Below are positions 4,146-38,525 of a stretch of DNA of 64,000 bases, in pieces; the stretch's first letter is position 1, and every line of letters begins with the position of its first letter. Below the pieces are notes generated by a model, which did no database searches, was not told the origin of the DNA, and worked only from the letters and a program-made list of their open reading frames with translations. The position numbers were made by a program, and so were the translations under genes. The DNA is from Octopus vulgaris (taxonomy: Eukaryota): NCBI GenBank assembly GCA_951406725.2, contig OX597821.1, forward strand, positions 22,816,001 to 22,880,000. The letters run 5' to 3'.

Positions 4146-4180
<35 letters not shown>

Positions 4181-4183
<3 letters not shown>

Positions 4184-4579
4184 TCTTTTACTTGTTTCAG
4201 TCATTTGACTGCGGCCATGCTGGAGCACCGCTTTTAGTCGGGCAACTCGACCCCGGGACTTATTCTTTGTAAGCCTAGTACTTATTCTATCGGTCTCTTT
4301 TGCCGAACCGCTAAGTGACGGGGACGTAAACACACCAGCATCGGTTGTCAAGCAATGCTAGGGGGACAAACACAGACACACAAACACACGCATGCACATA
4401 TATATATACATATATACGATGGGCTTCTTTCAGTTTCCGTCTACCAAATCCACTCACAAGGCTTTGGTCGGCCCGAGGCTATAGTAGAAGACACCTGCCC
4501 AAGATGCCACGCAGTGGGACTGAACCCGGAATCATGTGGTTGGTAAACAAGCTACTTACCACACAGCCACTCCTGCGCC
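4181..4579 (-). mobile_element. tRNA-derived SINE family A (~400 bp)
   Basis: Head GGCGCAGGAGTGGCTGTGTGGTAAG with B-box-like GGTTCAGTCCC, internal (TA/TG)n, tail ...GACTGAAACAAGTAAAAGAGT. More than 10 copies in the window. Confidence 0.9.
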
Positions 4580-4789
4580 TTTATATATATAATACTTTAA
4601 CTAGTTCCAGCTGGAGAGTAATGACCATGCTGGGGCACTGCCTTGAAGGGTTCTGTCAAACAAACTGATCTCAGAACTTACTACTTTCCTAGATCTAGAA
4701 CTAAAGCTATTGCTCTTTTTCTTTTTTTTTTTTGCAAAACCGTTGAGTGTCTGTAAGTGCATGTGTGTGCATGAATATAGACATGCATG

Positions 4790-5540: not shown

Positions 5541-6157
5541 GGTTAGAGTGTCAGGCTAACAATCATGAGGTAGTGAGTCTGATTCCCAGACTGGGTTGTG
5601 TGTTGTGTACTTGAGCAAGACACTTTATTTCACATAAATCCAGTTCACTCAGCTGTAAAAATGAGTTGTGACATCATCAGTGCCAAGCTGTATCAGCCTT
5701 AGCCTTTCCCTTGTATAACATCAGTGATGTAGAGAGGGGAAGCTGGCATGCATGGGTGACTGCTGGTCTTCCATAAAGAACCTTGGAGGGAAACTTTCTA
5801 AGTGCAATATCATGATCATTCATGACCGAAGGGGGTCTTTTCCCTTTATCCTTTACCCATGAATAATCATATTCTTATAAAGGAAGAGTGCCATAGAGTG
5901 TCACATTACATAACCAAACCAATTCATTTTCTGCTTCTTAACAGTAGAGTCTACTGATTTGCAGACTTCCCAAGAATGTATTTCCTAACACCCTCGTTAG
6001 TTCTACACTTTGTATTAGGAATGCAAAACATCTTAACATCTTTCTATAGCATTTTATTTTAAAGGCCATGCTTGCTCTCACTTTCAGCATCTAACCTCCA
6101 ACATATGCTCACATAAAATGCAGTTGAAATTACGATTTCTCTTAACATATCTTGGTT

Positions 6158-6565
6158 ACTCTTTTACTCTTTTACTTGTTTCAGTCGTTTGACTGCGGCC
6201 ATGCTGGAGCACCGCCTTTAATTGAGCAACTCGACCCCGGGACTTATTCTTTGTAAGCCCAGTACTTATTCTGTCGGTCTCTTTTTGCCGAACCACTAGG
6301 TGACGGGGACATAAACACACTAGCATTGGTTGTCAAGCAATGCTAAGGGAACAAACACAGACACACAAACACACACACATACATATATATATACATATAT
6401 ACGACAGGCTTCTTTCAGTTTCCGTCTACCAAATCCACTCACAAGGCTTTGGTCGGCCCGAGGCTATAGCAGAAGACACTTGCCCAAGGTGCCACGCAGT
6501 GGGACTGAACCCAGAACCATGTGGTTGGTAAACAAGCTACTTAACACACAGCCACTCCTGCGCCT
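6158..6565 (-). mobile_element. SINE family A
   Basis: Full-length copy, highly similar to 4181-4579. Confidence 0.9.
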
Positions 6566-6681
6566 ATTTACAGAAACCTTTCTTATTTTTTTCTATTGCC
6601 TAATTTTGGTATTGTTGCCGAAGGTGCTGCAGTGAATATTGTGCATTTTTACTTCAATCTCTCATCTTCCATTATTATTAG

Positions 6682-6892
6682 TGGCAAGCTGGCAGAATCG
6701 TTAACATGCTGGACAGAAATACTTAGCAACATTTCAGCCATCTTTACATTCTGAGTTCAAATTCTGCCAAGGTTGACTTTGCCTTTCATCCTTTCAGGGT
6801 TGATAAGTTAAGTAAGTACCAGTCAAGCCCTGGAATCAACTAGACCCCTCCCCACTAAATTTCAGACCTTCTACATGTAGTAGAAGGGATTG
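6682..6892 (+). mobile_element. SINE family B (MetaSINE-like core), diverged
   Basis: Head GGCAAGCTGGCAGAATCGTTA, B box GAGTTCAAATTC, core GCCTTTCATCCTTTCAGGGTTGATAA...AAGTACCAG. Confidence 0.75.
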
Positions 6893-7454
6893 TTTTACCA
6901 AATATTCAAGTACATCGCTCTCTCTATCTCTCCACACACACACATACATCATCATTATTTGGCATCCACTTTTAATTGGATTAGACAGAATTTGTTGAGG
7001 CAGATTTCCTACACCTGGATGCTCTTCCTGTTGCCAACCCTCACATATTTCTAACCAAGGTGATATTTACCCATACCTAGACATGTTTTTCATGGGAGAC
7101 TGGAAAGAACAACACTGCTTGTATGATGGTGATGCCTATTTACAACCATCACATAATATCAAGACAAGGGTGCACACATATAGACACATACATACATTAC
7201 ATATATATACGTGTGTGTTTGTGTGCACATATATGTGTGTGTATATTTGAGCATATATAATATGAGAGAAAGTGAAAGAAAATGGAATTCACGAGATTCT
7301 TTATTAATCACTATGATTGTTTTTGTTTTAACTCATCATGCATCGGTCCCTCACAGATGGGATGTTATTCAAACAGTTGTGGTGCATCACAGCATACTTC
7401 AAGATGTATTTTTAAATGGCATAATGGTGATGGCCATTTATACATTTTGTTCTG

Positions 7455-8898: not shown

Positions 8899-9674
8899 CT
8901 TCGAGATAATAACAACAACAACAACAAACAATAATAATGATAATAATAAGGACAAGGAAGAAGATTGAAATGAATAATCATGCTATGGCAGTGATGATGG
9001 TGTTGTAGTTATGATGGTGTAGTAGTGGCAGTGGTGCTGGTGGGGTTTTATGGGGGGTGGGGGGTGGAGGGCAAGTGAGGGAGGGAGGAAGGTTAGAGAA
9101 GAGGAATGTGTAAAAAAGAAGTAAGGTTGTTTCCATATGATATTTGTGTGATATAAGATCCCTTTCCACCCCACCATCTTGGCCTTCCATTCCCTTCTCT
9201 CATAAAACATTTAATTGAAGACCACCACCACCACCTCGAATCCAGAACAAGGACAAAAACAAAAACATAAAAAAACAGAAAGAAAGAAAGAACGGTGAAT
9301 AAAAGTAAAAAATAAGGAATGTCAAAAGAAATGAAAAGATTGTCAGCGGGGTGGCGTGAGGCGGGTTATGAAGTGTGGGGCTTGAGAAATGATGTGTAGT
9401 GGGGTAGCAGGGGGGGAGAACAAAATCAAAATACAGTATAAAGTAATTTGAAAAATATAATGAACAACAATGGTTTTGAATTTTGGCACAAGGCCGGCAG
9501 TTTTAGGAGGATGTGGTTTGTCAGTTTTTAGTTGGTAGTTTATTTTATTGACTTCAGATGACATGAAAGACAAAATCAATTTAAGAGGGATTTGAACTAG
9601 AAGACATTTTTTTTTTCTTCTTCTTGTCAGATTCTGTCAGATCACCATCTTAATAATAATAATAATAATAATCT

Positions 9675-10330
9675 TTTCTACTATAGGCACAAGGGGTGAA
9701 ATTTGTGGGAAGGGATAGCCAATTACATTAACCCCCAGTCAGTGCTCAACTGGTACTTATTTCATCAACCCCGAAAGGATGAGAAACAAAGTCGACCTCA
9801 GCGGAATGTGAACTCAGAATGCGAAGATAGACAAAAGTACTAAGCATTTTGCCCAGCATGTAAATGATGCTGCTAACCCACCACCTGGAGGAAGAGGAGG
9901 AGGAGGAGGGGGAAGAAGAAGAAGAAGAAGAAGAAGAAGAAGAAGAAGAAGAAGAAGAAGAAGAAGAAGAAGGAGAAGGAGGAGAAGAAAAAGAAGAATT
10001 CTTTCTATTATAGGCACAAGATCAGAAAATTATAGGGGTGAGGGGGCCAATTGATTACACTGACCCCAGTACTCAACTGGTACTTATTTCACCAGTCCCC
10101 AAAGTATGAAAGGCAAAGTCAACCTTGGCAGAATTCAAAGGGTCAAATCAGAAGAAATGCTATGAAGCATTTTGTCTGAAGTGCCAGCAATTTTGAGATC
10201 AAGGAGATCAGTCAATAACATTGACCCCAGTATTAGACTGGTACTTTCTATTATCGGCCCTGGAGGGATGACAGGCAAAGCTGACCTCAGCGAAATTGAA
10301 CCAGAAAAATGTGAGGTGAAATCATATATG
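9675..10330 (-). mobile_element. Cluster of diverged SINE family B copies around a (GAA)n tract
   Basis: Repeated CTGGTACTTATTT...CCCGAAAGGATGA...GTCGACCT core in reverse orientation. Confidence 0.7.
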
Positions 10331-13279: not shown

Positions 13280-14388
13280 AGTCCCTGTTACTTGCTAGGG
13301 AGTCAATAGCCTTGGTGAGCTCTGCTATAGATGGTGGACAGTCAAGTTACACATGACTGGCAAGATCTTGACACTCTCGATTGCAGCCTCAGCTACTGTA
13401 GTCTCCCGTGAGTAGAGATCCTGGTAGTGCTTCACCCATCTATCCATTTGCTTGCTTTGATCCCTGATGAGATCTCCAGTAGTTGATTTCAGAGGGGCTG
13501 ACTTGGTTGCGGATGGACCGAGGGCCTTCTTCAAACCGGCATACATCCCACGGGTGTCGCCCCTGTCAGCAGCTGACTGGATACTCTGACAGATTTCCTG
13601 CCAATACCTATTTGCACAGCGTCTGGCTGTCAGTTGGGTTTTATTTCTTGCCTTTCTGAGTTCTTCGAGTGACTTTGTAGAAGAATCACTCTTGTATTGC
13701 ATCAGAGCTGCACGCTTTGCTTCGATAACTGGCTCCAGCTCTGAGAGCCCAGCAATGAACCAATCTGGGTTTTGCCTTTCTCTCATGCCGAAAGTATCTA
13801 TTGATGTGGTATACAAAGCTTCCCCGATATAATTCCACCTACTTTCAGCAGAGGAGGTTGGGCAGCTACTGAGGGCAACCTTGATAGAAGCAGCAAAACA
13901 TTTTCGCAGTGTAGGGTCCGAGGTTCTGGCAGTGTTAATGCGTGGTCGGCCCACTTTCATGGAGCGATGGACTTTTTTAGGCAGAATCCTCACCCTACTT
14001 CTAATTAGTGAGTGGTCTGTCACAATCGGCGCTGTGGTAACTGCGGGTCAGTTGAACAGAATTCAGAAAGGATCTCCGTGTAATGATGAGATCCAGCTGA
14101 TGCCAGTGGTGAGATCTTGGATGTCTCCAAGATGCCTTGTGGGATGGCTTGTTAGCAAAGAATGTGTTTGTGATGCACAGGTTATGGTATGTGCAGAATT
14201 CGAGTAGTCTCTGACCATTGTCATTCATGTTGCCAATACCAAAGTGTCCAACACAAATGGGCCACGAATCATGGTCAGATCCCACACGAGCGTTAAAATC
14301 CCCTAGAAGGTAGATGTTTTCAGTTGTTGGTATATTTTTTATGACACAGTTGAGATCTTGGTAGAACTGGTCCTTGGTCTCCTCTGAG
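13280..14388 (-). pseudogene. RTE-clade LINE fragment (AP endonuclease C-terminal half plus linker), frameshifted
   Basis: [46 protein letters not shown] motifs. Frameshift near 14020; truncated at both ends. Confidence 0.9.
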
Positions 14389-14409
14389 TATATATATATA
14401 TACTTATAT

Positions 14410-14540
<131 letters not shown>

Positions 14541-21541: not shown

Positions 21542-21819
21542 TAGATATACAGACAGACACCCAGACAAGCAGACAGACAGCTAGATAGATAGATACACAC
21601 ACAGACAGAAAGAGAGAGAGTGACAGAGAAAGAGAGGTAGGAGAGAAGATAATTTCTCTAAAAATGGAAGCTGGGAATTGGTCTTGTTTTCTTTTTTTTT
21701 TTCTGTTTTATATTATATTTTAGATGCACCACCAAGTGCAATATTGCAACTGTCTGTACAAGGGTTTTTCCCAGCCCTTGCAGTTTGGAGTATTGTTGTT
21801 GTTGCAGTCATTATTGATT

Positions 21820-22030
21820 GGCGGCAAGCTGGCAGAATAGTTACCATGCCAGACAAAATGCTTACCGACATTTTGCCCATCTTTACATTCTGAGTTCAAA
21901 TCCTGTTAAAGTGAATTTTACTTTTTATCTTTCCAGGGTCGATAAAGTAAGTACCAGTTGGACACTGGGGTCAATGTATTTGACTTACCCTTACCTCTGA
22001 AATTGCTGGCCTTGTGCCAAAATTCGAAAC

Positions 22031-22091
<61 letters not shown>

Positions 22092-22308
22092 TAATGTGGC
22101 AAGCTGGCAGAATCAGCAGCAAGCCATGTAAAATGCTCAGCAGTATTTTATTCATCTTCATGTTTTGAGTTCAAATTCAGCTGAATTTGCCTTTCATCCT
22201 TTCAGAGTCAATGAATTAAGTACCAGTGAAATACTGGGGTCAATGTAACTGACTAGTCCCCTCCCCCAAAACCACCAAAAGTTCAGGCCTAGTGCCTTTA
22301 GTAGAAAG

Positions 22309-22310
<2 letters not shown>
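21820..22310 (+). mobile_element. Two tandem diverged SINE family B copies with (ATT)n tails
   Basis: GGCAAGCTGGCAGAAT heads at 21820 and 22097; tails ...GGCCTTGTGCC...ATTATTATT. Confidence 0.75.
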
Positions 22311-22338
<28 letters not shown>

Positions 22339-22341
<3 letters not shown>

Positions 22342-22675
22342 TAGTTTTATTTTCATAACGTGCTTTCACTTCACTACCGAGCGCAGCTCTGTGTGCCTTG
22401 GGTATGTGCTGTGCTTTGCTGTGATGCTCTTATGGTTACTGTATTGAAAATGTTCTGCATAGGATGTGTGCAGTGCCCAGTAGTGCAATTTTCTGTATGT
22501 TGTATATATTTGTAAGTCCTGATGTTTTTCTTATGTATTTGTCTAAATATTTTTTTTATCATACCTAATGCGCTCACTGTGATAAGGAATTGTTTCTGTT
22601 TTTAGATTCCACATTCAAGTTACCTCTATTTCCAGGTCTTTTTATTTTGAAAGTTTCTCCATTTCTTTTAGAGAA
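22339..22675 (-). mobile_element. 3' end of an R4/Dong-like RLE LINE in (TAA)n
   Basis: Reverse-complement similarity to 36870-37185 (ALGMIKK motif and 3'UTR). Confidence 0.8.
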
Positions 22676-23062
22676 ATGTTGTCATCTGCTGGCAGAATCA
22701 TTAGCACGGGTGAAATGCTTAACGGTATTTCGTCTGAGTTCAAATTCCGCTGAGGTGTCATTAAAGTTAGCATCATTATCGTTATGGTAGCATTAATTGT
22801 ATTGACAACGATAATGATGCTAACTTTAATAACACTTTGGAAATTAGTAGGAAGTAATATAATGTACTATTGACTATGTATATTTGCATCTAGGTACTAA
22901 TATATGTATGTTTATTATCACAATATCAAGTTGAAAAACTGAAACATTGAATGTGGAACATATATATGTTTACTAATTTATATTATTTATTTGCATTATT
23001 ATGTATATGTATATTTTTATATGTATAGGAGTGTGAGTATATGCACTCAAATGTATATGTAT

Positions 23063-31494: not shown

Positions 31495-32084
31495 GTCCAG
31501 TAACGCTGCCGTAATCTCCTTTAGAGAGACTTAGTAATTTTAATATTTCTATTATTGAAAACAAGTGGATGTATTCCACTGAAACTAGGTAAATAAAGCC
31601 TTCGAACTGGGACGATCAGTAGCAACACCTGCAAGTCTGACCACGCTGCATTGATAAGGGGCAACAACCCTGAAACGTCGTCTAGCTGTCTGACTGGCAG
31701 GATGAAGCGACTGACCTCCCTTGTTCGAAGGTTTGTAATGGACGCAGGTTCGTGTGTCAAATAGCTAGCTTGAGGCGGTGGCCTCTTGGAGCTAACCAGC
31801 GACAGCTTTAGTCTTATATTTACAAGACTGCCATTTTAGTATGGCGATAACTATTAATTTATATATATATATATATATATGATTCTGTGTAAAAACCAAT
31901 TTGTCTGGAGCCCAACCATGGATTTACAATATAGAATTGTGATGAACTATAAACTTGGACTCTGCCGTAAGGATACTTGGAGTTCTTCACTAATCTAAAC
32001 AATATTGTTATCTGGGTATACCAACAGAGTGCTTATGAAGTATTTTGCCCGAATTGATAATCCCTCACTATTAGCTGTATATAT

Positions 32085-32492
32085 ACTCTTACTCTCTTTA
32101 CTCTTTTACTTGTTTCAGTCATTTGACTGCGGCCATGCTGGAGCACCACCTTTAGTTGAGCAAATCGACCCCGGGACTTATTCTTTGTAAGCCCAGTACT
32201 TATTCTATCAGTCTCTTTTGCTGAACCGCTAAGTGACGGGGACGTAAACACACCAGCATCGGTTGTCAAGCAATGCTAGGGGGACAAACACAGACACACA
32301 AACACACACACATACATATATATATATATACATATATACGACAGGCATCTTTCAGTTTCCGTCTACCAAATCCACTCACAAGGCATTGGTCGGCCTGGGG
32401 CTATAACAGAAGACACTTGCCCAAGATGCCACGCAGTGGGACTGAACCCGGAACCATGTGGTTGTTTAGCAAGCTACTTACCACACAGCCAC
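32085..32492 (-). mobile_element. SINE family A
   Basis: Near full-length copy. Confidence 0.9.
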
Positions 32493-33067
32493 ATATATAT
32501 GTCTACTTCTAGATATATACAGGTCTGTTGTTTTGGACCAAACAGCCAACTATACATTAGTGTGGTTGCAGTGTCAAGCAAAGCCTATAATTCTATGTGA
32601 GATACACTAAGTTACTAAACCAAACAACTACTTACTAATTAGGTAGCAATCATGAAAGTACATTTAGGCATCGAAATATTTGGTGTGACGTAATGAAATA
32701 GCTATGTAACTGTATAACTCAAATTCTGACTACTTATGTGAAATCATGAATATCGGTAAGATTCTTCCTAGATGCTTATCATTTCCACCATCACCATTAT
32801 CATCATTTTTGTCATAGTCAAATACCAGCACCTTCACCATCAACATCAGCATCACTGCAATCACTATCAATAACCAACGCCGCAATCATCATCATTCCAA
32901 AGATACCACCTTCATCATCATTGTAACCATCAATACCTATATATATATATAGATAAATAGATAGATAGATAGATACATACATACATACATATACAGACAG
33001 ACACACATATACCTACACATACATACATATATATTTATGTACCCACACACACATACAAACATATATA

Positions 33068-33484
33068 CTCTTACTCTTTTACTCTTTTACTTGTTTCAGT
33101 CATTTGACTGTGGCCATGCTGGGGCACCGCCTTTAGTCGAGCAAATCGACCCCGGGACTTATTCTTTGTAAGCCCAGTACTTATTCTATCAGTCTCTTTT
33201 GCTGAACCGCTAAGTGACGGGGACGTAAACACACCAGCATCGGTTGTCAAGCAATGCTAGGGGGACAAACACAGACACACAAACACACACACATACATAT
33301 ATATATATATACATATATACGACAGGCTTCTTTCAGTTTCCGTCTACCAAATCTACTCACAAGGCATTGGTCGGTCCGGGGTTATAGCAGAAGACACTTG
33401 CCCAAGATGCCACGCAGTGGGACTGAACCCGGAACCATGTGGTTGGTTAGCAAGCTACTTACCACACAGCCACTCCTGTGCCTA
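33068..33484 (-). mobile_element. SINE family A
   Basis: Full-length copy, very similar to 32085-32492. Confidence 0.9.
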
Positions 33485-33952
33485 TATATAGATATATAGA
33501 TATATATAGATATATACATAAAAACACACACGCCCACACATATATGTATATATATGTGTGTGTGAGTGTGTGTGTGTGTGTGTATACATACATATGGCTT
33601 TATGTATGTTTATATATGCATATATGTGTATATGTATATATATGTATGAGTGTGTATATTTATGTATGTATGTATTGATTATTTGCTGGTGCATTTGGCA
33701 AACATCTTTATGAGAGGAAGTAAAGATGACTAAACCCAGAGTAGTATATTACTGCTATCTCTATTAGCACCACATCTTGGAATGCTGAATGTAAAGCTTG
33801 AGTGACTAGCTAGCTGCCTAGTAAAGTATCTATTTGCTCCTGTATATTTTTCAGTTTATCCATTAATCACTCTGTTTCTCCATTCACCTGCCTACCTGTT
33901 GCCCATCTACCTGTGTAGCTCTCTCTCACTCTCTCATACGCTCTCTCTTTCA

Positions 33953-34020
<68 letters not shown>

Positions 34021-34612
34021 TTCTCTCTCTTTCACTCTCTCTCTCTCTCTCTTTCTCTCTCTTTTTAACTTTTGCCTAGGGCGAGCCCATAGCAATATCA
34101 TATCTTCTCCACTATTTCAGTATTACGTGTTAAAAGTGAAACAAAAACGTTTCTCTATTTTATGTCAGATACTTTCACTTTAACAATAAAAATAATAATA
34201 ACAATTGAATTATATGTAGTAAGTAATAATTAAAATCAAACTAAAGTAACATGACAAACAAAAGTAAAAATAGCAATTGGTATAAAATTGCATCAATGAT
34301 TTGAACTTGAATAAGTGGTTTCACATGAATGGGAATAAATTAAAAATAAAATTAGCGTGCAGAAATGGAATAGTCCAGATGGATAATAAAAAATTAAATT
34401 AAAGAAAAGACTATTGTCTATAAAGTATACAATGTAGAGAAAAAAGGTCGCGTTTTTTTGCGCTCTGTAAAATTCGGTTAAAAAAGAAAAAAGAACAAAA
34501 TGTGAATTGTGGTTGCGGAATTGGAACGTCGGTTGGTGCGGTTTCGCGTCGCACTGGTTCTGTGCGTCGCACGTTTTCTGTTCGGGAGGCCGTTTTTCGG
34601 TCTGAGGCAACT

Positions 34613-35977
34613 ATGAGCCGCCTCTACCAAACGGATGAGATGGAAGGGAGAAATTTCTCTGAAAATTCGTCGACATCTGAGGAGGAGTTGGCGGTGAAAA
34701 AAATGGAAAGCACCTACGCAGGTATAACGAAGAAGTCAACAGAAAAAGAGATAGACCTGGCTAAGTTGACGGACTTCCAGGAGTTCATGAAGGAGGAGGA
34801 GAAGGGAGAGGTTGAGCTGTTGCCTCTAGCAGGGCGCGGAGACTGGTTCCATCGTAGAACCATTAAATATAAAGTATTTATGAATGGAGGTAGAAAAATG
34901 GAAGTGATTAACATGGAAGAAATTGAAGAGGCTTTCAAACAGACAGGAGAAGAAATTGTGTACATGACAAAAGGATTAGAATATGGAACCATAACGGTAC
35001 AATTTAAAAGTGAGAAAGCAGCCAGGATTATAGCAGCCAAGGTGGTGAGTACAGAAAAGTTTTACTTGTTCCCCTCGTATTTGAATAGAAGGACCACCAG
35101 AATTAGGGTGGAAGGAATACCTCCACACCTAGAGGGCGAATTAATAACGGCTGCGGTTATCAAAGGAAATGAAGATAAAGTGGACATCCTCCACGCCATT
35201 ATGAAATATGAAGGCGTGAGAGGTGCCACACTAGTAATGAACATACAGACGGAGACGGAAGTTATAGAAAAGCTTACGGACAGTATAAAAACTGGAAATA
35301 TTATTATGAGAGTGTGGGTGCAGGGTAGGGCGCCCAGGTGCTACAAGTGTGGCCTGAGGGGTCACATAAGAGCCTACTGCCCTCCCCCACCAAAGGAAAA
35401 AGAAAAGGAAATCGTCGCGGAAGCCCCAAAAGAGGAAGAAACCAAAGAGAACCAAAGGGAAAAAGAAACGACAGAAGAAGAGGAGATGCAACAAGAGTGG
35501 GAAGAAGGAAGAAAAAAAGAGAAAAAGAAAGAAAAAGAAAACTGTGCGAAGCTCCAACCCACCCCAACACCACCCGCACCCTCTGAATCCCACCCTTCCC
35601 CTGCAGACAGTGAACCCACCCGCTCCCCTCCAACAAGAAAACAAAAGAAAAATAATAATACATACAGACAAGAGTTTGAAAACGAACCCAGGTCGAACAT
35701 TTATATTGTGACTGAACAGAAAGAGGTTGAAAGGGTAATGGAGGAGTATGAATGGTATGAAATGGATGGGATAAGATATGCAGTGCTGGAAAAGAAGAAT
35801 ATAGATGAGTTTGTGTTGCGGTGTGAAAGGGAGAATTGGGAGGTGAAAGATACAAGAATGAGCGATGAATTTGTGGAATATATGGAGGACAGTTTCGGAA
35901 TAAGAATGGATATGGATGGTCTTCGTATTGGGAATGAACATTCAGGTGACAGTGAAAACAAAAGGACAGGTAAGTGA
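34613..35977 (+). CDS. Intact LINE ORF1/gag-like protein (454 aa from first ATG) with RRM-like region and single CCHC zinc knuckle; L1/Tx1-type
   Basis: Uninterrupted ORF. Motifs TYAGIT, TRIRVEGIPP, GRAPRCYKCGLRGHIRAYC (CX2CX4HX4C); E/K- and P-rich tail; purine-rich retroelement composition. Confidence 0.85.
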   Translation: MSRLYQTDEMEGRNFSENSSTSEEELAVKKMESTYAGITKKSTEKEIDLAKLTDFQEFMKEEEKGEVELLPLAGRGDWFHRRTIKYKVFMNGGRKMEVINMEEIEEAFKQTGEEIVYMTKGLEYGTITVQFKSEKAARIIAAKVVSTEKFYLFPSYLNRRTTRIRVEGIPPHLEGELITAAVIKGNEDKVDILHAIMKYEGVRGATLVMNIQTETEVIEKLTDSIKTGNIIMRVWVQGRAPRCYKCGLRGHIRAYCPPPPKEKEKEIVAEAPKEEETKENQREKETTEEEEMQQEWEEGRKKEKKKEKENCAKLQPTPTPPAPSESHPSPADSEPTRSPPTRKQKKNNNTYRQEFENEPRSNIYIVTEQKEVERVMEEYEWYEMDGIRYAVLEKKNIDEFVLRCERENWEVKDTRMSDEFVEYMEDSFGIRMDMDGLRIGNEHSGDSENKRTGK

Positions 35978-36125
35978 TGCTGGCGGAGGGGGCCGTTAGC
36001 ATCGCTTTCATATTATCATTTTTTCATTTTCATTCGCTCATAAATTTAATCATATTGTTCTATGTCCCCCATGTTTTGTTATGTCCGCCATTCTTCGTAG
36101 CCCCTGGTGGGTAATAAAGAAATAA

Positions 36126-36432
36126 CATGGAGGAAAGCACCTTCGAAAAATGTCTTGGTGCGACTATGAAAGGTATCTAATCAGTGGCGGTAAATTTGCC
36201 ACAATAGAAGCAAGGTTCGAGTCAATGGAGTGTGCAAGGGAGTACTCGAATCGAACTTGCAAAGTGGAAATATTTTATTTTTACCTTTATATCTGGGGCG
36301 TAGAACGTCCCGGAAAAAAATTTAAAATGCCCCCTCCCCCAGAAGTAGAGGTAGGCTGGATTGTAGCCACACTTCTATACAAGAGGGAGGACAAGATCCA
36401 ATTGATCGAAATTACAAGAGACAGGCTAACAA
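36126..36432 (+). pseudogene. Frameshifted fragment of a diverged paralogue of the upstream ORF1
   Basis: The pieces MEESTFEKCLG / YLISGGKFATIEARFESMECAR / ILFLPLYLGRRTSR / EVEVGWIVATLLYKREDKIQLI align by eye with ORF1 MEEIEEAF / YMTKGLEYGTITVQFKSEKAAR / FYLFPSYLNRRTTR / HLEGELITAAVIKGNEDKVDIL. Confidence 0.7.
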
Positions 36433-36644
36433 TTCCAGTCTGTTATATATTTTGAGTATTGTTATCACTAGTGATATCAAGACATAACTTTGTATTTTGT
36501 ATTTTGTGTAGATGTATATATATATAGATGTACATGTAATATGTACACATATATACATGCACTAGCACTATCACCCGGCAATGACGGGTCTTTAATGCTA
36601 GTATAAACACTCACACACACATTGGATAGACTTCTTTCAGACTA

Positions 36645-36697
<53 letters not shown>

Positions 36698-37185
36698 GGT
36701 CACAGAAAACGAGAAAGCAACCATACTCTGGGATATGCCGATACACACAGATAGAGAAATTAAGGCCAACAGACCAGATATAGTTGTCAGAGACCATGAA
36801 GAAAAAAAATGCTTTCTAATTGATGTATCAATACCGGCTGATGACAACGTGTCTCTAAAAGAAATGGAGAAACTCTCAAAATACAAAGACCTGGAAATAG
36901 AGGTAACTAGAATGTGGAATCTGAAAACAGAAACAATTCCTATCATAGTAGGTGCATTAGGCATGATAAAAAAATATTCAGACAAATACATAACAAAAAC
37001 ACCAGGACTTACAAACACATATAACATACAGAAAATTGCACTACTAGGCACTGCACACATCCTACGCAGAACACTTTCCATACAATAACCATCAGAGCAT
37101 CACAACAAATCACAGCACATACCCAAGGCACACAGAGCTGCGCTCGGTAGTGAAGTGAAAGCACGCTATAAAAATAAAACTACTG
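36698..37185 (+). mobile_element. 5'-truncated R4/Dong-like LINE (restriction-like endonuclease domain plus 3'UTR) in (TAA)n
   Basis: ILWDMPIHTD...NRPDIVV...LIDVSIP...EKLSKYKDL...PIIVGALG; (TAA)n on both sides. Confidence 0.9.
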
Positions 37186-37219
37186 AATAATAATAATAAT
37201 AATAATCTTATTATTCAGT

Positions 37220-38525
37220 TACTGAAATATGTAATCTTGACAGAAAAATACGAAAACTGTTGACAATGCATAGAATGCACCACCCTAAGGCAGATATAGA
37301 ACGACTTTATCTGCCAAGAAAAGAGGGAGGCCATGGACTATTACAACTGGCAATAACAATGAAGAATGCTACAATTGGCCTAGACACCTACCTGAAAAAC
37401 TCTGAGGACTGGATGTTAAAACTCAGTAAAAAAAAAACAGGCAAAGGAATATCTAAGTGAATTCCGAATACAACAAATTTCGGAATTAGACATACAAGAA
37501 ACAAGCACAGAAAAAGCTAAACGCATGAAAACCCGTGCTAAAACTGCTGCCTTAGATATTCTGAATGATAAGTGGCAAGAAAAACCTCTTTATGGTAAAT
37601 ACCCAAAGAGAGCGAATAATGCAGATGTTGACAAAGCCCTGACCCATCAATGGCTTATGGCCTCTGGCTTAAAATCGGAAACAGAAAGGTTTATCATAGC
37701 AGCTCAAGATCAATGCCTACCAACAAGGAACTACCAGGCCAACATATTAAAGATCGGCAGTAGCCCAACATGTCGTGTACGTCAACAACAAAGTGAAACC
37801 ATTGATCATGTTATCTCCAAGTGCAGTCTTCTAGCGCCTACAGAGTATCTCAACAGGCATGATAGAGCAGCACAATATATTCACTGGGTAATCTGCAAAA
37901 ACCTGGATTTGCCCCATGAAAAAAACTGGTAGGAACACAAACCACCTCCAGTGCTTGAAAATGACCACATTTCACTCCTCTGGAACTTCACCATTCAAAC
38001 TGACAGAAAGATAGATGCAAATAGGCCAGACATCATATTGAAAGACTTCAGACAAAGAACATGCCTCCTCATTGATATGACTGTCCCAATCGATATAAAC
38101 GTATCTGTCAACCCTACCAAAAACTGAGCAAATATAAAGATCTTGAAATAGAAATCAGCAAAATGTGGAACTTGAAGACTAAAACAATACCTGTTGTCAT
38201 AGGTGCCCTGGGAATGATAGCAAAAGGGGCTGATCGCAACTCAGATACCAGGAAACCCAAAATGGCAGAAATTCAAAAGATAGTGCTCATGGGAACTGCT
38301 CATATCCTTCGCAAAATACTTTCTATGTAACCTCAAGTTTTAAAACAAACACAACTTTCGCTTTTTTTTTTTTTTTTAGGCATTCACTAGTACAACACTA
38401 AATACAAAACCAAATATATGGCACACTAGGCATTGCAATACGAACTTCCAACCTGTTGCCTCTCGAGGTCTCTGGGTGAGACTTGGAGCCAACTTGTACA
38501 AATATAAAGCAAAAGTCAAACATAC
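37220..38525 (+). pseudogene. Second, different R4/Dong-like LINE 3' portion (post-RT, CCHC remnant, RLE) with stops and frameshifts
   Basis: HPKADIERLYLPRKEGG, AAQDQ, ETIDHVISKC, RHD, NRPDII motifs; ends in (TAA)n. Confidence 0.9.

Follow-up and report, generated by a model that had tools for sequence, protein, structure and literature searches.

A multi-copy ORF1-only retroelement in Octopus vulgaris with a 3' tail common to an abundant short interspersed element

Analysis of a 64,000-nucleotide (nt) stretch of the Octopus vulgaris genome (assembly GCA_951406725.2, contig OX597821.1, positions 22,816,001 to 22,880,000 of the forward strand; hereafter the window, in the coordinates of which all positions are given) identified a full-length element of the non-LTR type (LTR, long terminal repeat) of about 1,676 bp at 34449..36124 on the plus strand. 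As expected of a non-autonomous long interspersed element (LINE) that retains the first of two open reading frames (ORFs), it encodes an ORF1-type protein, has no ORF2 before its 3' end, is amplified and forms a discrete insertion; its last 27 nt are shared with an abundant short interspersed element (SINE). The element is an amplified multi-copy family in the ORF1-to-tail form; its edges, its insertion at the cost of a few target bases, many copies of both the near-identical and the diverged kind, an ORF end common to several subfamilies and the shared tail are all seen in the data. In our assessment, this full-length multi-copy element is probably descended from a LINE with two ORFs, of which ORF2 was lost, and the tail that it kept would allow the reverse transcriptase (RT) of a LINE that is itself unseen to copy both the element and the SINE. 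Like HAL1, HeT-A and Ag-Sponge, it is a non-autonomous LINE with ORF1 only, and it apparently arose separately from them.

Edges, copies and age of the element

The edges of the element were delineated with contigs from four public runs (X1, X3, X5 and X7) aligned to 34090-36490 (the joints listed are 15 of 50, and 518 more loose ends lie beyond those listed). Empty-site joints, which lead from 34444-34446 directly to 36124-36130 and skip 1677-1684 bases, make up 7 of the 15 joints listed and come from three of the four runs (X1, X3 and X5), with none among the listed joints of X7; this last run may be RNA, a guess that was given no weight with regard to expression. The contigs of the empty form carry ATTTGAA or ATTTGAAT between the flanks, and these host letters are missing in the window: about 7 nt of the target (7-8 letters) were deleted at insertion, and no target site duplication (TSD) was formed; the empty forms are paralogous copies of the host repeat and need not represent the orthologous site. 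The search for a TSD around the element was negative, as in an earlier note that was made on this DNA from the sequence alone, the best pair of flanks being A-rich, 8 nt long and in overlap with the tail. The candidate pair AGAAAAAA/AGAAATAA was rejected because all SINE copies have these bases within their tails and because comparison with the empty site reveals a deletion. TSDs, target truncations and blunt ends are all described as outcomes of non-LTR insertion (PMC4494074).

At the 5' end, an X1 joint connects 36124 to 34452, that is, tail to head, at a depth of 246.7, and one X1 contig begins at 34449. The empty-site joints and this tail-to-head joint agree within a few bases on the 5' edge (34447-34452), hence the copy is full length and spans about 34449-36124; the start at 34540 proposed in the earlier note has to be moved upstream accordingly. 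A tandem or circular form of the element exists. Neither the tail-to-head joint nor the identity of the flanks had been recognized previously.

These flanks are the two halves of one older ORF1-bearing repeat that is interrupted by the element. The left half (34250..34446, plus strand) belongs to an older element that bears an ORF1, is decayed and has a very high copy number; in it, a frame from 34062 reads KEKTIVYKVYNVEKK directly before the insertion. The right half (36125..36490, plus strand) is a frameshifted ORF1 relative that resumes with NMEESTFEKCL, followed by a frameshifted RRM region, and shows similarity to the ORF of the element (tblastn E 0.001) and to the relatives of that ORF (blastx E 1.5e-9). 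The summed depth of the host repeat in X1 is 1.6e5-9e5 from 34171 onward, with none at 34090-34170. A form of the host repeat without 36125-36425 (joints 34446 to 36425, depth 1045 in X1 and 321 in X3) is possibly another non-autonomous family that is shrinking towards a non-coding element. In two O. vulgaris gene models (P0002 and P0042), the sequence after the C-terminal piece of the ORF resembles that of further members of the ORF1 superfamily, the same arrangement as in the window; this is a hint of targeting or clustering that is open to gene-prediction bias.

The body of the element is covered by contigs in all four runs. In X3, contigs lie at 34672-34857 (1 difference, depth 1883), 34904-35059 (10 differences, depth 889) and 35660-35826 (5 differences, depth 1494), and another, at 35982-36122, runs from the 3' untranslated region (UTR) into the tail and ends at the tail end (depth 1322, 11 differences, 9 gaps); a further UTR-to-tail contig, at 35961-36121, has a depth of 17. 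Contig depth is not equivalent to copy number, and other listed X3 contigs are as low as 14-22. An X5 contig at 35831-36029 crosses the stop codon with 146 and 52 letters on the two sides and is 87% identical to the window (26 differences, no gaps, depth 48); the changes listed for it match the subfamily of gene models P0001 and P0005. Contigs X5 35823-35997 and X7 35849-35997 show 2 differences each and extend only 20 letters past the stop. The high-depth UTR-to-tail contigs, together with the diverged subfamily that crosses the same stop, bear out the proposal that this is an ORF1-only retroelement and not a one-off product.

A comparison of the window with six near-identical contigs, two of which overlap slightly, gives 16 differences in 995 positions (1.6%), which would correspond to a few million years at the rate given in PMC13282606, with the proviso that the runs may come from other species. 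Of the 278 differences, 40 are listed; these include 11 ORF changes private to the window versus essentially all aligned contigs, of which 8 are nonsynonymous and 3 synonymous, as in neutral drift; therefore this copy looks intact because it is young, and selection acting on it was rejected on these grounds. Thus, of the two options previously offered for the intact ORF, recent insertion stands and selection on this copy does not. The reading frame is gap-free between subfamilies that are 13-17% apart in DNA, which suggests selection on master copies; the amino acid identity of the C-terminal region between subfamilies, about 66%, is by a rough estimate not above the neutral expectation.

Layout of the element, the ORF1 protein and its relatives

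The 5' UTR (34449..34612, plus strand, as are all features of the element) is CpG-rich, with 17 CpG observed versus 8.7 expected in 34447-34612, compared to 35 versus 59.7 in the ORF, and likely contains an internal Pol II promoter. ORF1 (34613..35977) encodes 454 amino acids from ATG to TGA, has an A-rich coding strand (38% A) and contains one CCHC zinc knuckle, as noted before, with the pattern C-x2-C-x4-H-x4-C at residues 243-256 (35339..35380). From the stop to the tail end, there are 147 nt (35978-36124), comprising a T-rich 3' UTR (35978..36097), covered by the X5 contig 35831-36029 and the X3 contig 35982-36122, and the 27-nt tail (36098..36124). No remnant of an endonuclease or RT is seen in this stretch, where all three plus-strand frames are closed by stops, in keeping with the earlier description of a short 3' UTR devoid of both, and no plus-strand ORF of at least 100 amino acids starts between ORF1 and 36150. 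A scan against Rfam produced only miRNA matches that were driven by microsatellites, all of them outside the element.

The ORF1 protein is predicted to consist of an RRM domain, an RRM-like domain and one CCHC knuckle, followed by a C-terminal domain, that is, to be a type I ORF1. In a structure model built from an alignment of 29 sequences, the pLDDT is about 90 over residues 80-260 and above 90 over residues 160-240. The predicted RRM at residues 75-159 (34835..35089) resembles the RRM chain of the La protein (Z 9.7, rmsd 2.5, 82 aligned residues), and the second RRM-like or ferredoxin-type domain at residues 160-240 (35090..35332) resembles an ACT-type chain (Z 8.4, rmsd 2.5, 78 aligned residues); the top Foldseek matches are tandem-RRM proteins (E about 1e-5), with alignments spanning residues 75-240. 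The C-terminal domain (residues 361-454; 35693..35974), common to several subfamilies, is modelled with low confidence (pLDDT about 70 or less). In the knuckle, C243 and C246 are invariant among the 29 aligned relatives and C256 is conserved in more than 90%; the Pfam zf-CCHC profile matches the ORF below the cut-off (E 0.085), and the knuckle profile matches nucleocapsid knuckles with E 2.6e-7. No match to Transposase_22, the type II ORF1 domain, was found in the ORF at E up to 1. The neighbours in the ESM Atlas are eukaryotic CCHC proteins (0.92) and ZCCHC3-type clusters (0.89), values of feature similarity that serve as leads only.

Type I ORF1s, in which one or more RRMs directly precede the CCHC motif, are described for the I, Jockey, R1, Tad1, plant L1, L2 and some CR1 elements, and those tabulated for Jockey, L2 and CR1 have three knuckles (PMC4120745). 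Variants of ORF1 with RRM and CCHC in non-mammalian animals are termed consistent with Tx1 in PMC5203782, and PMC13282606 lists for O. vulgaris 13 recently active L1-Tx1 families, with an average length of about 5.4 kb (its Table 1), as well as 13 CR1 families. As a guess, we lean slightly towards L1-Tx1 as the parent clade.

The first homology search returned only two proteins, both O. vulgaris gene models; the relatives of the protein amount to 237 representatives at E up to 0.001 and include proteins of O. vulgaris, O. sinensis and O. bimaculoides. The C-terminal 34-96 residues of the ORF are present in 25 of 152 stored proteins at 58-97% identity. The similarity ends at residue 452-453 in 22 of these gene models, where the window reads CAG/GTAAGT, at residue 449 in one and at the RTGK stop in two; two more cluster members also end at the RTGK stop. 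The 13 of the 25 gene models that were checked are all from O. vulgaris and, together with three cluster members, represent 11 different long contigs. None of the 25 gene models with the C-terminus of the ORF, and none of 35 longer relatives, contains an endonuclease or RT domain (Pfam for the former), and no longer fused ORF1-ORF2 proteins were found in the searches, which is weak evidence. The viral, metagenome and prokaryote-genome collections contained neither relatives of the ORF nor matches to the tail.

The CAG/GTAAGT at 35967..35975 is a consensus splice donor (cut after CAG) that spans the last codons and the stop; its use in vivo is putative. The position is used alike in the gene models of subfamilies that are 66% identical and lies about 140 nt 5' of the AATAAA, so that it could alter the formation of the 3' end or yield chimeric transcripts. 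The C-terminal piece occurs twice in each of the gene models P0004, P0005 and P0154, and P0005 and P0154, located on different chromosomes, share a 33-residue linker that does not map to the element. Four distant relatives of 740-861 amino acids (P0059, P0075, P0118 and P0146) have a core of two RRMs and a single knuckle and a shared C-terminal region and are candidates for the ORF1s of full-length elements; three of the four lie on ENA contigs of 3-6 kb.

The shared tail and the SINE

The tail of the element is identical to the SINE tail at 50672-50698 at 26 of 27 positions and matches those at 57529-57555, 60031-60057 and 57345-57371 on the minus strand with 2, 2 and 3 mismatches, respectively, as reported in the earlier note. 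Altogether, the window contains 5 matches versus 0.00 expected (0 of 100 shuffles), and there is a sixth tail at 50856-50882 with 5 mismatches. The tail includes a predicted hairpin (36100-36112) and an AATAAA (36113-36118) and ends with GAAATA directly against the host sequence, with no poly(A). A 4-bp stem with a 5-nt loop is predicted for the element and three SINE copies; one SINE copy turns the G-U pair of the stem into G-C, and the most decayed copy folds weakly. The folding z-score is -1.6 to -2.1 for longer stretches around the tail, and the whole UTR folds no better than shuffled sequences (z -0.41). The claim that the tail is shared with the SINE thus holds for the 27 nt, where the clear likeness ends: the 30 nt upstream are not above chance (shuffle fraction 0.16-0.66), compared with 41-52 of 55 upstream nt shared by the SINE copies among themselves.

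Three SINE copies in the window carry the tail. The first (50467..50883, plus strand) consists of two units with two tails and is flanked by a 15-nt TSD with one mismatch; the second (57240..57759, minus strand) consists of three units, the last one partial, with two tails and a 12-nt exact direct repeat near its ends; the third (60031..60257, minus strand) is monomeric, with one tail and a possible 6-8-nt TSD read by eye. Stretches resembling A and B boxes were likewise read by eye against the consensus, and ARAGORN found no tRNA. Octopus SINEs are reportedly named in a 1994 paper by Ohshima and Okada. In X1, the summed depth at 36104 is about 4e5, so the SINE is very abundant; SINEs are given as 11.6% of the O. 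vulgaris genome in PMC13282606. In the two multimeric copies, each unit after the first begins anew from one and the same internal position (GGTATTTCGTC), which suggests an inherited quasi-dimeric subfamily. Older repeats that are 70-85% similar to the 5' and middle parts of the SINE and do not have the 27-nt tail (6670-6894, 9651-9886, 21810-22351, 43491-43698, 45449-45673 and 47077-47529) appear to have the head and body in common with the SINE and to carry other tails.

Origin of the element and its significance

By analogy with known LINE biology, the element would be transcribed by Pol II from the CpG-rich 5' UTR, and the ORF1 protein (ORF1p) made in cis would coat its own RNA; the ORF2 protein (ORF2p) of a partner LINE would then bind the 3' hairpin in trans and perform target-primed reverse transcription, with the SINE using the same hairpin to compete for that ORF2p. 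Our preferred reading of the element is that of a parasite that may keep ORF1 for its own packaging. The three-part system of an autonomous LINE, an ORF1-only element and a SINE that had been put forward earlier is thus borne out insofar as the ORF1-only element and the SINE share the tail, and the autonomous LINE has not been observed. A three-way economy of LINE, half-LINE and SINE centred on one 27-nt hairpin, in which a chimera of a Tx1-type ORF1 and a tail taken from the SINE or an unrelated LINE prefers to insert into or next to its relatives, is built up into head-to-tail arrays and provides ORF1p in trans for a SINE that accounts for much of the octopus genome, appears rather improbable to us.

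Several observations weigh against derivation by ORF2 loss and the use of a common enzyme. The element is not covered from end to end by any one contig, and a branch leading from the stop into ORF2 could lie hidden beyond the joints listed (15 of 50) or among the 518 further loose ends. The 27-nt tail is shorter than the 31 letters of the bridging rule, so the link between the UTR and the tail formally misses this rule, although a 27-nt repeat should not force a false join if, as assumed, the contigs were built from 31-letter words. No autonomous LINE with the 27-nt tail is seen in the data examined, which include no whole octopus genome and, in the viral, metagenome and prokaryote-genome collections, no octopus loci. 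The sole difference from the nearest SINE tail sits in the predicted loop; in zebrafish L2, ORF2p is described as binding the 3' stem-loop, with the loop setting the specificity of the RT (PMC4176376), and so the difference speaks against one enzyme for both, unless this copy alone carries it. Furthermore, the 55 nt upstream of the tail are only weakly similar to the SINE (shuffle fraction 0.03-0.10), two SINE copies have direct repeats of 12-15 nt whereas the element inserted with a target deletion, and the type I architecture of ORF1, found also in I, Jockey, R1, L2 and CR1, does not fix the clade.

An alternative is a chimera: ORF1 would stem from one LINE clade, template switching would have added the tail of the SINE or that of an unrelated LINE, and a foreign RT would be used. 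The sharp end of the similarity to the SINE at 27 nt points in this direction, as do the hairpin, the short A-rich end and the lack of both poly(A) and a TSD, which resemble L2/CR1-type ends, the single knuckle instead of the three tabulated for the Jockey, L2 and CR1 type I ORF1s, and the shuffling of ORF1 between clades proposed in PMC4120745. However, the weak likeness over the 55 nt upstream of the tail fits an old shared UTR, and the route given for HAL1, HeT-A and Ag-Sponge in PMC5786205 is internal deletion, so that we regard a chimeric origin as unlikely. It is less likely still that an autonomous LINE family, in most members of which ORF2 is present, gave rise to the ORF1-only form by deletion as a minor product that was amplified to a limited extent: other continuations are possible beyond the joints listed and depth is not copy number, but the UTR-to-tail contig reaches 1322 compared to 889-1883 for contigs within the ORF in that run, the stop and the start of the UTR are the same in a subfamily diverged by 13%, none of the 25 gene models reaches an endonuclease or RT by splicing, and the searches yielded no longer fused form (a weak argument).

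A domesticated host gene of the ZCCHC3 or L1TD1 kind, or the Gag gene of an LTR element, might be suggested by the intact ORF, the nucleocapsid-like knuckle and the ZCCHC3-type clusters (feature similarity 0.89, a lead only). This explanation is highly improbable given the dispersed multi-copy insertion with an empty site, the predominance of nonsynonymous changes among the listed private ones (8 of 11), the predicted folds, which are those of RRMs and not of capsids, and the lack of an LTR pair, as self-comparison of the window returned for the element only low-complexity A-rich matches and no terminal repeats. Finally, the great abundance of the SINE and the good match limited to 27 nt could be taken to indicate that the tail is an independent, extremely truncated SINE behind a one-off ORF1 fragment. 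We give this almost no credence: the ORF, UTR and tail are absent as one block at the empty site, which sets the 3' edge of the insertion at the tail end and assigns the tail to the element, as the earlier note had held; high-depth contigs with family-level variants end at 36121-36122, and in another contig the tail is joined to the 5' end of the element itself.

Among known systems, HAL1 ends in poly(A) and HeT-A forms telomeric head-to-tail arrays and has a long 3' UTR; the element, in resemblance to the arrays of HeT-A, has one tail-to-head joint. The mammalian HAL1 elements resemble the octopus element in being non-autonomous, with ORF1 only, and in keeping their coding capacity over time (PMC3627910, PMC5786205); HAL1 is described as derived from the L1 clade, in mammals with a type II ORF1p (coiled coil-RRM-C-terminal domain) and an RT that reads poly(A), in contrast to the type I ORF1, the absence of poly(A) and the specific hairpin tail shared with a SINE in the element. 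With no Transposase_22 match, tandem RRMs plus CCHC and no poly(A) end, the element does not belong to HAL1. HeT-A of Drosophila (Jockey clade) is likewise ORF1-only, with a type I RRM-CCHC protein (PMC5786205, PMC4120745); unlike HeT-A, the element is dispersed over at least 11 long contigs and has a 147-nt 3' end, and with a single knuckle, conserved in the 29 aligned relatives, compared to three in Jockey ORF1s (PMC4120745), it does not fall within HeT-A/Jockey. Ag-Sponge of Anopheles is comparable by its description alone, as a CR1-derived, ORF1-present, bipartite non-autonomous LINE (PMC5786205). The short 3' stem-loop tail is shared in the same manner in the stringent SINE-LINE pairs (UnaL2/UnaSINE, ZfL2 and the L1-clade pairs described for monocots and Chlamydomonas), but these pairs join a SINE to an autonomous LINE, whereas in the present case the element seen to share the tail encodes a protein and is itself non-autonomous, and no LINE is seen. 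As to Tx1-clade LINEs, an ORF1 with RRM and CCHC is termed consistent with Tx1 (PMC5203782), and Tx1 elements are described as often targeting other repeats (PMC4494074), as the present copy sits in one, a target preference that amounts here to one locus plus hints; the Tx1-mobilised SINEU, in contrast to the element, ends in poly(A) (PMC4494074). Our search of the literature on the element, its class and the SINE, outside of which lay Repbase, Dfam and the Zenodo library of PMC13282606, found no description of an octopus element that is ORF1-only or shares a SINE tail; the family may already be catalogued.

Other repeats in the window include a second abundant family of about 420 bp, with more than 10 copies that are up to 95% alike (4151-4591, 6156-6574, 32078-32519, 33061-33498, 40110-40500, 44657-45075 and 49616-50000 among them). 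Further retroelement-like ORF fragments were read by eye at 13325-14537, 36735-37206, 37525-37932 and 61707-62045, and they resemble pieces of RTE-type endonuclease/RT and Penelope- or R4-like elements; 36834-37206 has a 92% inverted copy at 22318-22692.

At least 25 O. vulgaris gene models, one CFAP65-like and one TACC-like among them, have taken in the end of the ORF with its splice donor and are probably annotation artefacts. Because the tail is common to an abundant SINE, the LINE behind the expansion of octopus SINEs could be sought with the 27-nt motif as a probe. If the proposed origin is correct, the element would represent a fourth lineage of ORF1-only LINEs in addition to the three ORF1-encoding non-autonomous LINEs named in PMC5786205, namely, HeT-A (Jockey), HAL1 (L1) and Ag-Sponge (CR1), this one from a mollusc, distinct in its ORF1 and including young copies. 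The retention of ORF1 upon loss of ORF2 would then be a recurrent strategy, and the element would provide a natural test of the need for ORF1p in cis.

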